A stretch of 62,000 nt of DNA from Octopus vulgaris (lineage: Eukaryota), in contig CATOCA020000023.1 of NCBI GenBank assembly GCA_951406725.2, positions 1 through 62,000 on the forward strand. Reading direction: 5' to 3'. Positions 12,869 through 34,445 of this stretch are shown here, one piece after another. The stretch's first letter is position 1, and each line of letters starts with the position of its first letter. The notes below the pieces were generated by a model. It had not been told where the DNA came from, searched no databases, and saw only the letters and a list, made by a program, of their open reading frames with translations. A program made the translations under genes and the position numbers.

Positions 12869-13440
12869 GTAATTTAATAATATGCGAGGGGAGTAACTCT
12901 AGAAAGGGAGATAACTAAAAAAACTCTTCCAGGGTTACCTCCCTTACATCTAATTAAATTACTATTATGTATTATTAAATTGAAATGTTCAAGGGAAGTA
13001 ACTCTAGAAAGGAGATAACTAAAAAGAAAATCTCCCAGTTACCTCCCTTACATCTGATTCAATTACTATTATTTGTTATTAAATTGATGTATTCAAGGGG
13101 AGTAACTCTAGGAAGAGAGATTTACCCCCCTTGAATACTTCAATTTAATAACACAATAGTAATTTAATTAGATGTAAGGGAGGTAACTCTGGAAGATTTT
13201 TTAGTTCTCTCCAGAGGAAGATAACTAAAAAATCTACTATTATGTATTATTAAATTGAAATGTTCAAGGGGAGTAACTCTAGAAAGGGAGATAACTAAAA
13301 GATCTTCCAGAGTTACCTCCCTTACATCTAATTGAATTACTAATATGTATTATTAAATTGAAATATTCAAGAGGAGTAAATCTAGAGATATATAAAAAAA
13401 AATCTTCAAAAGTTACCTCCCTTACATTTAATTAAATAAC
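12869..13440. repeat. AT-rich ~100-bp telomere-junction repeat with direct and inverted copies
   Basis: Unit AAGGGGAGTAACTCTAGAAAGGGAGATAACT...AGTTACCTCCCTTACATCTAATTAAATTAC... at ~12887, ~12990, ~13266 and ~13370; inverted copy at ~13122-13212. Confidence 0.85.
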
Positions 13441-13504
13441 GACTATTATCAAACTGTGTCATGGAAGCTAATTAACTCTACAATATAATGTGCAGACGTA
13501 ACAC

Positions 13505-13710
13505 TTTTACTCCTTTCCTTGTTTAGTCATTTCAATGTGCCCATGCTGGAGCACAGCCTTTTCTAGAGCAAATCGACACTAGGACTTTTATCTACGTCAG
13601 TCTAGTATTTATTCTGTTGGTCTTCTTTTCCCGAACGGATAGGTTAATGGAGTGTAAAGTTCACCGACATCGCTTGTGAAACGGTTTTGGGGACATCGAA
13701 ACACACACAT
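13505..13710 (-). mobile_element. SINE 3' half, degenerate
   Basis: CCATGCTGGAGCAC, GAGCAAATCGAC and CCGAAC segments match the full SINE at 50581-50976. Confidence 0.7.
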
Positions 13711-13764
13711 ATATACATATATATAAACATCTATATGTATATACATGTTTCTCTCTCTATATAT

Positions 13765-14545
13765 ATATTGCAGAAACAATACTGCTGTCTTTAGTGTTCC
13801 CACTGATATTGACGTAAGAGAAGCGAACGAAGTTGACTCCCAACACAAAATTGCAGACATAACCTTCACTCCCTCTGACATCGTAGCAGCAATAAATGAG
13901 GTCAAATACTACTCTGCTGTAGGCCCTGATAGATTCCCCGTTAGTCTCCTGAAGGAATGTAAACACCAACTTGCAGTCCCACTGACCAACCTCTGGAGAA
14001 ATTCGTTAGATGCAGGTATATACCAAAACAGTTTCTATCCCAGTCAGTCATCCCGGTTTTCAAACAGGGAAACAGATCCCTCGCACTCAACTATCGCCCA
14101 GAGACCCACAAACTCCTATATGCAAATCAGCATGGCTTTCGCTGTGGCAGGGACTGTCTAACACGGCTGACACCACATTGAAGATGTACTCAAAGCCTTG
14201 GGAACAGGTTCGAACTCTGATGTCATATATCTTGAATTCAGTAAAGCGTTCGACAGGGTAGACCATAATATCCTACTCTCAAAATTGGCAAATGTTGGAA
14301 TCTGTGGAAAAGTTCTACACTGGATCAAGTATTTCCTGGCGAATACAACACAACATGTTGTAGTTGATGGAGTCCACTCAAGCCAAGCAAAAGTCACCAG
14401 CGGTGTCCCTCAGGGGTCTGTCTTGGGTCCGCTACTCTTCATAATCTACATAAACGACCTTTCCAGTGTCGTACATTACTGCAAAGTGAACATATTTGCT
14501 GATGACACCAAGCTCCAGCAAATCGTCAATGAAGAAGCAGACCGA
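13765..14545 (+). mobile_element. CR1/L2-group LINE reverse transcriptase fragment, truncated at both ends, frameshifted
   Basis: Motifs SAVGPDRFP, YLEFSKAFDRVDH, SGVPQGSVLGPLLFIIYINDL, FADDTK; near-identical to 32725-33450 and 59205-60037. Confidence 0.93.
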
Positions 14546-30777: not shown

Positions 30778-31622
30778 TATGTATGGACGCATGTGTGAAC
30801 GAGGCTTGTGTGTATGAACGCATGATGTGTGAACGATGCTTGTTTGTATGGACGCATGATGTGTGAACGAGGCTTGTTTGTATGGACGAATGATGTGTGA
30901 ACGAGGCTTGTTTGTATGGACGCATGATGTGTGAACGAGGCATATTTGTATGGACGAATGATGTGTGAACGAGGCTTGTTTGTATGGACGCATGATGTGT
31001 GAACGAGGCTTGTTTGTATTGGACGCATGATGTGTGAACGAGGCTTGTTTGTATAGACGCATGACGGGTGAACGAGGCTTGTTTGTATGGACGCATGACG
31101 GGTGAACGAGGATTGTTTGTATGGACGCATGACGGGTGAACAAGGATTGTTTGTATGGACGCATGACGGGTGAACGAGGCTTGTTTGTATGGACGCATGA
31201 CGTGTGAACGAGGCTTGTTTGTATAGACGCATGACGGGTGAACGAGGCTTGTTTGTATGGACGCATGACGGGTGAACGAGGCTTGTTTGTATAAGGACGC
31301 ATGACGGGTGAACGAGGCTTGTTTGTATGGACGCATGACGGGTGAACGAGGCTTGTTTGTATGGACGCATGACGGATGAACGAGGCTTGTTTGTATGGAC
31401 GCATGATGTGTGAACGAGGCGTGTATGTATGGACGCATGACGGGTGAACGAGGCTTGTTTGTATGGACGCATGATGGGTGAACGAGGCTTGTTTGTATGG
31501 ACGCATGATGTGTTAACGAGGCTTGTTTGTATGGACGCATGTGTGAACGAGGCTTGTTTGTATGGACGCATGATGTGTGAACGAGGCTTGTTTCCATGGA
31601 CGCATGATGTGTGAACGAGGCT
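30778..31622 (+). repeat. Second 34-bp minisatellite array, about 25 units
   Basis: Same unit as 25618-26016; central units carry a GACGGG variant. Confidence 0.95.
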
Positions 31623-31683
31623 AACCCCAACCCCAATCCCGACCCTGAAACTAACCCTAACCCTAACCCAACCCAACCCCAAT
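31621..31683 (-). repeat. Interstitial degenerate telomeric tract
   Basis: CTAACCCCAACCCCAATCCCGACCCTGAAACTAACCCTAACCCTAACCCAACCCAACCCCAA, same polarity as the terminal array. Confidence 0.88.
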
Positions 31684-32420
31684 CGTAATGTAATTACATG
31701 TAAGGGAAGTAACTGTGGAAAATCTTGTACCTATTTCCCTTTCTAGAGTCACTTCCCTAGAATATATAATTTAATACATAATAGGCGAAGCAGTGGTAAG
31801 TAGCTTGCTAACCAACCACATAGTTCCGGGTTCAGTCCAATTGCGTGGCATCTTGGGCAAGTGTCTTCTGCTATAGCCCCGGGCCGACCAATGCCTTGTT
31901 AGTGGATTTGGTAGACGGAAACTGAAGGAAGCCTGTCGTATGTATATGTATATGTGTGTGTGTTTGTCCCCCTAGCATTGCTTGACAACCGATGCTGGTG
32001 TATTTAGGTCCCCGTCACTTAGCGGTTCGACAAAAAGAGACCGATAGAATAAGTACTAAAAGGTGGTGCTCCAGCATGGCCGCAGTCAAATGACTGAAAC
32101 AAGTATAAGAGTAAAAGTAATTTAATTAGATATAAGGGAACTCGGGAAGATTTTAGAGTTATCTTCCTTCGTAGAGTTACTTACCTTCACGTTATAAGTT
32201 AATAATAATATAGAAGGGGAGTAACTCTAGAAAGGGAGATAACTAAAAAATCTTTCAGAGTCACCTCCCTTACATCTAATTAAATAACTTATGTATTATT
32301 AAATTGTAAAGTTCAAGGGAGGGGAAACTCTACAAAGGGGGATAACTTTAAAAATCTTCAAAAGTTACCACCCTTACATTTAAATACATGTCTATTATCA
32401 AAATGTATTATGGAAGCTAA
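31684..32420. repeat. Second cluster of the AT-rich telomere-junction repeat, interrupted by a SINE
   Basis: GGGAAGTAACT, GGGAGATAACT and ACCTCCCTTACATCTAATTAAAT motifs as at 12869-13440. Confidence 0.8.
31784..32118 (+). mobile_element. tRNA-derived SINE (octopus-type), near full length
   Basis: B-box-like GGTTCAGTCC, central (TA/TG) tract, tail CTCCAGCATGGCCGCAGTCAAATGACTGAAACAAGT. Confidence 0.88.
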
Positions 32421-32721
32421 TTAACTCTACAGTATAATGTTCAGATGTACCGCATACACTTTTACTCTTTTCCTTGTTTAGTCATTTCACTGTGCCACTG
32501 CTAGAGCACAGCCTTTTCTAGAGCAAATCGACACTAGGACTTTTATCTACGTCAGTCTAGTATTTATTCTGTTGGTCTTCTTTTCCCGAACGGATAAGTT
32601 AATGGAGTGTAAAAAACACCGGCATTGGTTGTCAAGCGGTTTTGGGGACACCGAAACATACACACATATACATATATATAAATATCTATATGTATATACA
32701 TGTTTCTCTCTATATATATAT

Positions 32722-34445
32722 ATATTGCAGAAACAATACTGCTGTCTTTAGTGTTCCCACTGATATTGACGTAAGAGAAGCGAACGAAGTTGACTCCCAA
32801 CACAAAATTGCAGACATAACCTTCACTCCCACTGACATCGTAGCAGCAATAAATGAGGTCAAATACTACTCTGCTGTAGGCCCTGATAGGATTCCCCGTT
32901 AGTCTCCTGAAGGAATGTAAACACCAACTTGCAGTCCCACTGACCAACCTCTGGAGAAATTCGTTAGATGCAGGTTATATACCAAAACAGTTTCTATCCC
33001 AGTCAGTCATCCCGGTTTTCAAACAGGGAAACAGATCCCTCGCACTCAACTATCGCCCAATCTCACTCACCTCCCACATCATCAAAGTGTTTGAAAGAGT
33101 GTTAAGATCAAGGATGGCTGACTTCCTGGAGACCCACAAACTCCTAAATGCAAAACAGCATGGCTTTCGCTGTGGCAGGGACTGTCTAACACAGCTCTTA
33201 CACCACATTGAAGTTCTACACTGGATCAAGTATTTCCTGGCGAATACAACACAACATGTTGTAGTTGATGGAGTCCACTCAAGCCCAGCAAAAGTCACCA
33301 CCAGTGGTGACCCCCAGGGGACTGTCTTGGGTCCGCTACTCTTCATAATCTACATAAACGACCTTTCCAGTGTCGTACATTACTGCAAAGTGAAAATATT
33401 TGCTGATGACACCAAGCTCCAGTAAATCGTCAATGAAGAAGCAGACCGAACTCAACTCCAGTCTGATCTATATGCTGTGAGTCAATGGGCAAACAGAAAC
33501 AAAATACAACTAAACGAGGGAAAATTTGAGCTGATGCATTTTGGAAGAAACTCCTCACTAAAACAGCCATACTCTCTTCCTTCAGGGGAACCGCTCACAG
33601 CCTCTAACAATATCAGAGAACTGGGTGTAATTGTTGATGACCATCACAGTTGGAGTGCACACATCAACAAGAAGGTCGATATAGCTCGTAGGATGAGTTC
33701 CTGGATCTTAAGAACTTTCCGGTCCAGAGAACAAGGTGTCATCATACCACTTTTTTCCTCCTTTGTACGGCCACACCTTGAATACTGCTGCCCACTGTGG
33801 TCTCCTCAAACAAGACTAAACATCTCCAGAATTGAGTCACCCCAGAGGGCACTCACTAAACGAATTGAAGGCATGGCTGCTCTCGATTATTGGGATTGCC
33901 TTAAAGCCTTGAAACTTTACTCCCTCCAGCGTGAGCGGTACATCATTTGTACGATGTGGAAAATATACCGCCAACTATGCCCAAACGACCTAAACATTAG
34001 CTTCAAGGTTCATCCAAGACTTGGACCACGGGCTATACGTCCCCTGCCCAATTCAAGATCACAACATACATGTACACTGCAACATAATTTCTTTTCCTCA
34101 ACAGGCCCTGCCCTATTTAACATTGTCCCGAGAGAGATCAAAGAGGAAAAGGATCCCATCAACTTTAAACAGAGTCTGGATAGATTCCTTCAAAGAATAC
34201 CAGATAAGCCACCCATAATTGGATACAAGTCACCCAACAAGAACTCACTACTTGAACAAAACTGATACAACTCACCCAACAAGAACTCACTACTTGAACA
34301 AAACTGGATACAACTCACCCAACAAGAACTCACTACTTGAACAAAACTTGACTTAAACAGGATTCGAATAATCCTATCAGGTGGTGCTATTAAGTTAGAC
34401 ATGTCCTGGACCAATCTTTGGTCGAAACATATCTAAGTTTATATA
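32722..34445 (+). mobile_element. CR1/L2-group LINE, 5'-truncated, RT to 3' end, inactivated
   Basis: QHGFR, PQGTVLGPLLF, FADDTK, LGVIVD, VRPHLEYC, LKLYSLQR motifs; stop at ~33423; ~130-bp internal deletion at ~33212; 3' end TATCTAAGTT. Confidence 0.95.
34221..34348 (+). repeat. Triplicated ~43-bp segment at the end of CR1 ORF2
   Basis: Three copies of GATACAA[G/C]TCACCCAACAAGAACTCACTACTTGAACAAAACT; only one copy in the paralog at ~60800. Confidence 0.9.

Follow-up and report, generated by a model that had tools for sequence, protein, structure and literature searches.

A probable internal telomere remnant bounded by subtelomeric patchwork at a chromosome end of Octopus vulgaris

We asked how a chromosome end of Octopus vulgaris came to carry two telomeric tracts of the same polarity, which bracket positions 12869-31620. 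The window, that is the whole stretch of DNA analysed, comprised 62,000 nucleotides (GCA_951406725.2, contig CATOCA020000023.1, positions 1 to 62,000). The first-pass annotation had read the bracketed part as a discrete unit of ~18.7 kb with Y'-like architecture, stacked on a fossil chromosome end by a recombination-based extension system that acts alongside telomerase. The coordinates of the features are collected in Table 1.

Table 1. Features at the left chromosome end, in window positions.
Feature	Position	Strand	Remarks
Terminal telomeric tract, left chromosome end	1..12868		C-rich on +
(TTTTAA)n block within terminal telomere	393..9246		8.9 kb
Telomere-adjacent AT-rich ~104-bp units, inverted arms, mixed orientation	12869..13465	.
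SINE fragment, distal copy	13506..13700	-	92% to 32463-32657; matches SINE at 50.6-50.96 kb
CR1-like LINE piece, 5'-truncated, after (TA)n, distal	13769..14545	+	RVT_1 E = 1.6e-16
Patchwork 1, colinear deleted paralogue of 35.85-39.15 kb	14546..16258	+
15-mer satellite, ~632 copies, 80% neighbour match	16259..25605	.	9.3 kb
34-mer array 1, ~12 copies	25619..26015	.
Patchwork 2, pieces in shuffled and partly repeated order with paralogues in 34.5-40.1 kb	26016..30638	+
Perfect telomeric run, 15 bp, at module boundary	27527..27541	+	paralogues at 14873 and 35911
34-mer array 2 (30780-31622, ~25 copies), preceded by a short 15-mer array (30639-30766)	30639..31622	.
Internal degenerate telomere tract (stub)	31621..31688	+	68 bp, polarity as terminal tract
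Stub-adjacent AT-rich units, proximal, broken by plus SINE 31793-32110	31685..32460	.
Minus SINE piece, (TA)n, CR1-like piece, proximal, runs to LINE 3' end	32463..34445	+
Proximal patchwork, internal ~2.4-2.8 kb duplication, paralogues of most distal pieces	34518..40347	+
Longer CR1-like copy, independent (matched part only)	59225..60949	+	outgroup

The present telomere is ~12.9 kb long. Its (TTTTAA)n block contained 1,400 TTTTAA units versus a single CCCTAA, and graded intermediates were observed at both edges of the block. A nanopore basecalling artefact by which TTAGGG is read as TTAAAA is described in an excerpt of 10.1101/2022.01.11.475254. From the match to this artefact, the block is likely a miscall of the telomere repeat, and standard telomere scans would then under-measure this end; a genuine (TTTTAA)n satellite embedded in the telomere was thought unlikely. 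In the innermost 475 bp of the telomere we counted 43 canonical repeats versus 14 CCCAA and 7 CCCCAA variants.

The internal tract, hereafter the stub, lies ~19 kb inside the chromosome end, is C-rich and is oriented toward the telomere. It consists of ~12 units, only 2 of which are perfect CCCTAA. Its local score was 73, versus a maximum of 26 in the null (20 Markov resamplings of 36 kb), and this bears out the earlier observation of an internal tract with the polarity of the terminal one. The CCCAA and CCCCAA variants of the stub are also the commonest in the innermost part of the real telomere. As had been noticed before, the second 34-mer array runs directly into the stub, and two bases are common to both. 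The stub forms a duplicon boundary, with this array on one side and a block of AT units, SINE and CR1 pieces on the other; both flanks, 34-mer satellite and AT unit, are non-coding. Proximally, the DNA continues into ordinary TE-rich sequence without the 15-mer or the 34-mer.

This was the only clear internal telomeric tract in the window. The 15-bp telomeric run at 27527, a length reached in 0 of 600 Markov simulations, is possibly an older scar. No telomeric tract that is G-rich on the plus strand was found beyond 12.9 kb in the window, and a head-to-head fusion was thereby ruled out. De novo telomerase healing at the 34-mer was also rejected, as the polarity is wrong for it: on the G-strand, the 34-mer has the repeats on its 5' side.

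Further, we compared the blocks beside the two tracts. The first-pass annotation had proposed that the same order of elements occurs at both places, with the same 5' breakpoint. The order itself (AT-rich units, minus SINE piece, (TA)n, CR1-like piece) was confirmed, 13155-14545 and 32113-33449 being segmental duplicates, and the CR1 5' breakpoint is identical in both. The likeness does not extend to the tracts: shared homology begins at 13155/32113 and not at the telomere junctions, a plus-strand SINE (31793-32110) is present in addition in the proximal copy, whose first AT unit is oriented opposite to that of the distal copy. The distal and the proximal tract abut different ends of the AT-rich element, and therefore a common junction is not demonstrated. 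The homology formerly delimited as 12.87-14.5 versus 31.62-33.45 kb is real but longer, since 12869-16258 (3,390 bases) has 2,694 bases in colinear paralogy, with deletions, to ~32.1-39.2 kb.

Across 611 ungapped columns, 21 sites set the distal and proximal copies apart from the third CR1 copy (59.2 kb), while the distal copy had 7 private sites and the proximal copy had 5. The two blocks are 0.3-10% diverged and differ by reciprocal indels; the only near-identical stretch found between copies was 330 bp at 99.7%. The distal CR1 piece lacks 69 bp that the other copies have, and the proximal block lacks 129 bp that the distal one has kept. Therefore, in their present form, neither block can have been copied directly from the other, and a one-step self-copy of the proximal block is excluded. 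At 14545 the distal piece is cut with 1-6 bp of microhomology, varying with the donor.

The LINE pieces are presumably CR1-like, the domain tested being RVT_1 only. Named protein matches of the reverse transcriptase were to a ctenophore, among matches at 42-55%, and one match (P0003) reached 75%. TRAS/SART, like MoTeR, are telomere-targeted non-LTR elements. The piece found here lies ~0.9-1.0 kb from the telomeric tracts, not directly in telomeric repeats, and it has an ordinary interstitial relative at 59 kb.

We then quantitated the make-up of 12869-31622. Satellite, either 15-mer or 34-mer, accounted for 10,715 of 18,754 bases (57%). Among the remaining 8,039 bases, 5,666 (70%) have a same-strand homologue (at least 85% identity over at least 80 bp) in 31685-40400, the 8.7 kb inside the stub, versus 334 with one on the opposite strand. 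The homologous pieces are 0.2-1.4 kb in size, shuffled and partly repeated relative to the proximal order, and interleaved with the two satellites; their junctions show microhomologies of 0-6 bp. They are 1.8-6.1% diverged without clear grouping and, at 2-6% difference, are not fresh copies. A higher-order repeat in the long 15-mer array was not borne out: one offset led, at 1,700 bp (102 shared 40-mers), with no clean or single dominant period. No second or tandem copy of the segment was found in the window. What had been taken for a discrete unit of ~18.7 kb is satellite together with a shuffled patchwork largely paralogous to proximal DNA.

No genes were seen in the segment. It is overlapped by 22 stop-to-stop frames of at least 120 aa; the satellite arrays contain 20 of them and the CR1 piece the other 2. 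In the 9 of these frames that were scanned, no helicase domain was detected and RVT_1 was present in one. Pfam matches to PMG, extensin, keratin and ETF-QO in satellite frames gave 0 passing stretches and were set aside as low-complexity noise.

The module of 34-mer, 15-mer and patchwork is present twice. The 15-mer/34-mer junction in the arrays at 30639-31622 is the same as that at 25605, and both 34-mer arrays end in one phase (chance ~0.09). Together with the bracketing tracts, the possible scar at 27527 and a block family common to two organism labels (see below), this would suit a dedicated Y'-/TALT-like cassette, namely a telomere-bounded unit of satellite and patchwork with which short telomeres are repeatedly extended, through homologous recombination or from circles, in permanent support of telomerase. 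We regard such a cassette as very unlikely. The two halves of the segment differ in content and length, and no telomeric tract was found between the two 34-mer/15-mer modules. The absence of a second copy in the window, of clear grouping among the paralogues and of a helicase domain in the scanned frames also argues against it, as do the single short near-identical stretch and the long terminal array. At the proximal junction, the stub meets satellite with a 2-bp microhomology rather than telomere-to-telomere homology. On these grounds, neither the Y'-like architecture nor the extension system proposed earlier was upheld. A wider version, in which octopods would share a telomere-capping subterminal block on a 34-mer/15-mer carrier and repeated joining at one 34-mer phase would stack modules as a TALT-/Y'-like back-up, with scars at 31.6 kb and, older, at 27.5 kb, seems equally improbable.

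The arrangement was also sought in other sequencing runs. The stub-side junction sequence (31670-31819) was present in two further data sets, one of another organism label, as single contigs with 0 differences in run X2 and 2 differences in run X4 (organism B). Both contigs comprise the last bases of the stub and the adjacent block, and both start at 31670, inside the stub, as expected if the copies differ in the telomeric repeats beyond. Contig depth over this interval was 608.8 in X2 and 151.5 in X4, versus 14.9-51.5 and 13.5-46.8, respectively, for the listed low-depth CR1 contigs of the same run. This places the block at ~3-40x background, in depths that are not calibrated to single copy and with an X4 CR1 contig of depth 249.5 excluded from the low set. 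Summed depths in the stub bin were left out, being explicable by overhang of 34-mer contigs. Contig depths in X1, X2 and X4 suggest many copies of the AT-unit/SINE/CR1 block beside the stub, which is likely a multi-copy subterminal family and may be common to several chromosome ends. When variants of X1, X2 and X4 aligned to the proximal copy were checked at 8 listed sites (32255-32503), they agreed with the distal allele at 6; three of these matches fall in the SINE and may be generic. In raw-read run X21, with the species label of X1, 30 of 12.9 million reads aligned, none on the stub, 34-mer or CR1, and the run was not used for copy number. An exact search for the stub/AT-unit junction 30-mer in JGI metagenome contigs gave 0 matches, which is uninformative for animal DNA.

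The stub end and adjacent block were thus recovered in other samples, but no contig or read that bridges the 34-mer/stub junction at 31622 was present among the 24 listed of ~393,000 aligned pieces. This last result would agree with an assembly artefact, in which either the distal 12.9-25 kb came from another end and was attached by way of the 15-mer array (9.3 kb), or the junction at 31622 goes back to a chimeric nanopore read. The end rests on a nanopore-type consensus that includes the likely miscalled 8.9 kb, and misjoins classically arise at long satellites and multi-copy block families such as those present here. We nevertheless consider an artefact unlikely. The divergence and reciprocal indels of the blocks show that they are not an uncollapsed read duplicate, and the stub-side 150 bp were reproduced base for base in an independent run. 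Were an overlap misjoin located within the 15-mer array, some end would still carry a genuine 31622 junction, and the paralogy of 26.0-30.6 kb to 34.5-40.1 kb would be unaffected.

The multi-copy state of the block and the last stub bases, nearly identical across samples, speaks for another explanation, that the chromosome never ended at 31.6 kb. The stub would then be a passenger, copied or translocated with the block, or the remnant of a longer internal tract after deletion; a shorter telomeric run does ride in three paralogous modules (14873, 27527, 35911). This seems quite unlikely, as the proximal DNA continues TE-rich and free of both satellites, which is expected of an original end, and the orientation of the stub suits capture on a G-strand 3' end.

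The explanation that we favour, and consider probable, is a subtelomeric duplication patchwork with the 68-bp stub at a duplicon boundary, left by a critically short telomere that was repaired with copied or joined subtelomeric DNA of a related end. The AT-unit/SINE/CR1 block would form a subterminal family numbering roughly ten to some tens of copies, and the telomere on it would have eroded here to the innermost variant repeats. The G-strand 3' end of the stub may then have joined, or primed in, the 34-mer array of a paralogous end via the 2-bp microhomology; candidate routes are microhomology-mediated break-induced replication, or end joining with terminal translocation. Such a capture would have brought 34-mer, 15-mer and patchwork DNA ending in another member of the block family, and telomerase would have rebuilt, or would maintain, the 12.9-kb terminal array. 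Deletions, template switches and patchy conversion may have reshuffled the pieces before and after capture. The claim of a fossil end with subtelomeric DNA added distally agrees with the polarity, the variant repeats, the short microhomologies and the multi-copy block in other samples. The locus suggests repair in episodes, not a length-maintenance system in constant operation.

We compared this end with known systems, as these are described in excerpts of the sources cited. Human subtelomeric duplicons (Ambrosini et al. 2007, PMC2323237) contain internal (TTAGGG)n-like islands that are short, degenerate, telomere-oriented and located at duplicon boundaries; orientation is kept, and subterminal block families adjoin the terminal arrays. 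The octopus end is similar in its degenerate tract facing the chromosome end at a duplicon boundary and in its same-strand pieces. It differs in tract length, the human tracts being mostly 150-200 bp, and in its small pieces set among 15-mer and 34-mer satellites with no genes seen. At the VR end of C. elegans CB4856 (Kim et al. 2019, PMC6581047), a short old-telomere remnant is followed, as we propose here, by added duplicated DNA and a long real telomere; the authors infer that the telomere of this telomerase-positive animal wore down, was repaired by recombination and was then healed by telomerase. That end holds five tandem TALT copies with telomeric tracts of 780-1182 nt between them and a 200-kb copy of an internal block, whereas no template in tandem copies separated by telomeric repeats was seen in our window.

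In TERT knock-outs of Pyricularia oryzae (Rahnama et al. 2021, PMC8381367), a small vestige of the telomere persists, linked to sequence from elsewhere in the subterminal DNA through microhomology-mediated replication or end joining, and repair is usually duplicative. A telomere-like stub joined with microhomology was also observed here. Many Pyricularia relics derive from telomere-targeted MoTeR retrotransposons, whereas we found no telomere-targeted element in the octopus segment. Yeast Y' (10.1101/2025.11.13.688250; PMC6410037) is a discrete element of 5.2 or 6.7 kb that may occur in tandem and is amplified in type I survivors; its conserved ORFs include that of the Y'-Help1 helicase. Only about half of Y' elements (10.1101/2025.11.13.688250) have a centromere-proximal telomere-like tract, of 20-500 bp. 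The octopus segment resembles Y' in its subterminal place and in the telomeric tract on its centromere-proximal side; the Y' 36-mer and the 34-mer are likened by size alone. It differs as a non-coding mosaic seen once, with neither a fixed size class nor conserved helicase ORFs.

Such architecture is therefore already known from human, C. elegans and Pyricularia subtelomeres, and what is new is likely its finding in a cephalopod. In agreement with the first-pass annotation, no description of subtelomere structure in cephalopods was found in the literature searched. If the assembly is right, this end documents, base by base, how a telomere failed and was rescued in the cephalopod germ line; a new mechanism would be revealed only if the junction or the modules turned out to be mobile and variable. 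The markers gained are a multi-copy telomere-adjacent block common to two organism labels, two satellites and a PCR junction, usable for chromosome-end mapping, TERRA and telomere-length work.

Within the telomere-adjacent AT-rich units, positions 13075-13150 form a near-perfect fold-back (z = -9.0 for folding, matched by none of 200 shuffles).

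The window represents the left end of a chromosome, probably of an octopus, an attribution that follows the SINE and the first-pass annotation and that comparison of the CR1 reverse transcriptase did not confirm. Its terminal C-rich telomeric tract contains a long block of (TTTTAA)n. In this block we counted 1,400 copies of TTTTAA versus 1 of CCCTAA, and CCTTAA and CTTTAA intermediates flanked it on both sides. Miscalling of TTAGGG as TTAAAA by nanopore basecalling is documented (10.1101/2022.01.11.475254). Since (TTTTAA)n is the reverse complement of that miscall, the real telomere at this end is likely approximately 12.9 kb long, and the end was presumably built on nanopore consensus.

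Positions of the features discussed in the text
Feature	Position	Remarks
Terminal telomeric tract	1-12868	C-rich
(TTTTAA)n block	393-9246	8.9 kb
18.7-kb segment	12869-31622	satellites and patchwork pieces
AT-rich inverted-arm units	12869-39300	confined, within the window, to the distal 39 kb
Near-perfect AT-unit arm fold-back	13075-13150	unit orientation flips here
Distal block	13155-14545	telomere side
Short telomeric runs	14873-14881; 27527-27541; 35911-35925	same polarity; one module boundary in three paralogous pieces
Inverted 15-mer-like monomer	16248-16270	where the 15-mer array emerges from an AT unit
15-mer array	16259-25605	~55 G3+ runs per kb on the minus strand
Internal telomeric tract	31621-31688	~12 units, 2 perfect
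Proximal block	32113-33449	aligns to distal block
TE-rich DNA	40400-62000	
GIY-YIG-like remnant	41.1-41.5 kb	presumed, by eye
Tc1/mariner-like remnant	46.4-47.3 kb	presumed, by eye
Broken LINE reverse transcriptases	52.8-54.6 kb; 56.6-57.8 kb; 58.3-60.9 kb	PHD match in the second
Independent CR1-like copy	59.2 kb	outgroup
Further copy of the module joined to distal CR1	61832-62000	window's end

Local alignment to (CCCTAA)n detected one strong telomeric tract past 12.9 kb; it scored 73, while the highest score among 20 Markov resamplings was 26. As the first-pass annotation had stated, this internal tract has the polarity of the terminal one and is directly abutted by the 34-mer array. The two have 2 bases in common at the junction. 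No tract of opposite polarity was found by this alignment past 12.9 kb in the window. CCCAA and CCCCAA, the variants seen in the internal tract, were likewise the most frequent ones within the terminal tract's innermost 475 bp (14 and 7 versus 43 canonical units; homopolymer errors could inflate these counts). Its G-strand end is GGTTAG, the register where telomerase reportedly stops in human cells, which is a weak indication. The short telomeric runs at a module boundary may possibly be scars of an older telomere; 15 bp was reached in 0 of 600 simulations.

The distal and proximal blocks had been described as sharing one order and one CR1 5' breakpoint. The breakpoint, following (TA)n, is indeed identical, in comparison with the independent CR1-like copy; the first 290 bp differ between the two sides. 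Proximally, a plus-strand SINE has been added, and the first AT unit is flipped relative to the distal one. CGTAAT-x-TAAT is read at both telomere junctions, a likeness that does not establish a shared telomere junction. Of the 611 ungapped columns in this comparison, 21 set the outgroup apart, 7 are unique to the distal copy and 5 to the proximal one; the blocks are thus segmental duplicates and not separate insertions. Since 69 bp are absent from the distal copy and 129 bp from the proximal one, neither descends from the other in its present form. Identity was uneven (AT units 89.6%, SINE 92.2%, first 330 bp of CR1 99.7%, its later part 94.8-97.0%), pointing to patchy conversion or to mosaic donors.

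The AT-unit arm fold-back reached -23.7 kcal/mol (z = -9), and ordinary units folded more weakly (z -2.1 to -2.8). These units, of modest depth in other runs, may be subtelomere-specific. The module joined to distal CR1 at 14545 (6-bp microhomology) recurs 20 kb inward of the patchwork's inner edge.

The 18.7-kb segment is not a unit, contrary to the first-pass annotation. Satellites make up 10,715 of its 18,754 bases, and 5,666 of the remaining 8,039 have a same-strand paralogue in 31685-40400 (334 on the opposite strand). Positions 12869-16258 correspond to about 32.1-39.2 kb, as a paralogue that is colinear but carries deletions (2,694 of 3,390 bases); 26016-30638 consists of pieces from the 34.5-40.1 kb region, shuffled in order and partly repeated. 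Substitution divergence among paralogous pieces was 1.8-6.1% with no clear grouping (5 sets), and switch points had 0-6 bp of microhomology. Outward from the internal tract, the succession 34-mer, 15-mer, patchwork is seen twice with an identical 15/34 junction and no telomeric tract between the two modules. Both 34-mer arrays (ends at 26015 and 31622) stop at the same monomer phase (chance about 0.09).

Y' elements are discrete units of 5.2 or 6.7 kb with conserved ORFs (10.1101/2025.11.13.688250). Two of their defining features were looked for in the segment and neither was found. It holds 22 frames 120 aa or longer, 20 of them within satellites. When 9 of these were scanned for domains (21 of 45 listed frames overall), RVT_1 came up in the CR1 piece, satellite frames gave low-complexity matches, and no helicase was detected. 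We regard stacking by a standing Y'- or TALT-like system as improbable.

The core of the 15-mer is similar to the AT-unit arm (TTACCTGCCC vs TTACCTCCC), and this satellite may derive from the arm motif. On the G-strand side its array had 93 non-overlapping G-quadruplex-type motifs (a raw count).

What stands of the proposed fossil end is its anatomy, namely polarity, variant repeats and paralogous block. We consider it rather probable that a short telomere eroded and was then capped by subtelomeric DNA captured from a paralogous end. As to the sequence of events and the source of the added DNA, we infer the following. In a subterminal block family, the telomere carried by one member would have eroded down to its innermost variant repeats. 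Through minimal microhomology, the eroded end would then have joined to, or primed in, a 34-mer array at a paralogous end. This would have imported satellite and patchwork DNA terminating in another family member, on which telomerase would maintain a long array.

Several publications describe comparable arrangements. Human subtelomeric (TTAGGG)n-like islands are mostly telomere-oriented and nearly always at duplicon boundaries (PMC2323237). C. elegans CB4856 VR carries a short old telomere, then added DNA, then a long new telomere (PMC6581047). In Pyricularia TERT knock-outs a telomere vestige is retained, and microhomology-mediated replication or end joining fuses it with other subterminal DNA (PMC8381367). 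In yeast, a short telomere can engage an ITS in the subtelomere through BIR (PMC8047117). By analogy, the locus would work like telomere internalisation with subtelomere capture; it is not a Y' member. It is a known type of architecture, with read-level confirmation pending; no cephalopod subtelomere description was found in the literature searched, most subscription papers being outside its coverage.

Part of 29500-33460 was present in 20 of 24 listed sequencing runs (8 studies, 5 organism labels), some of which reflects genome-wide SINE and LINE. We mapped four runs onto 31553-33520: X1, which may be the source sample, X2, X4 (organism B) and X21, raw reads with the species label of X1. Single contigs covered 31670-31819 in X2 (depth 608.8, 0 differences) and X4 (151.5, 2 differences); depth was 194-425 over parts of 32090-32390. 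The listed low-depth CR1 contigs had 14.9-51.5 (X2) and 13.5-46.8 (X4, excluding one of 249.5), a rough, uncalibrated ratio of ~3-40, which points to a multi-copy family. This abundance of a block carrying the last bases of the internal tract speaks for a passenger tract, at a site that was never a chromosome end, a reading that we regard as improbable. Both contigs begin at 31670, within the tract, consistent with a divergence of the copies' telomeric repeats past this position. Of 8 sites checked, 6 had run variants matching the distal allele (three of these lie in a SINE), so the family includes both types.

None of the 24 pieces listed, of about 393,000, bridges 31622, in data from which reads similar to human DNA, a class that would take in long TTAGGG runs, were filtered out. 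This speaks for a misjoin or chimera in assembly, which we consider unlikely, though slightly less so than a passenger tract. From X21, 30 of 12.9 million reads were placed, and neither CR1 nor the abundant 34-mer received any of them. Summed depth was 1.8-8.0 million in the 34-mer bin versus 0.4-23 thousand in AT-unit bins, which marks the 34-mer as a major satellite.

No host gene was recognised in 40400-62000, where we observed the broken LINE reverse transcriptases and what we take to be the two other remnants.
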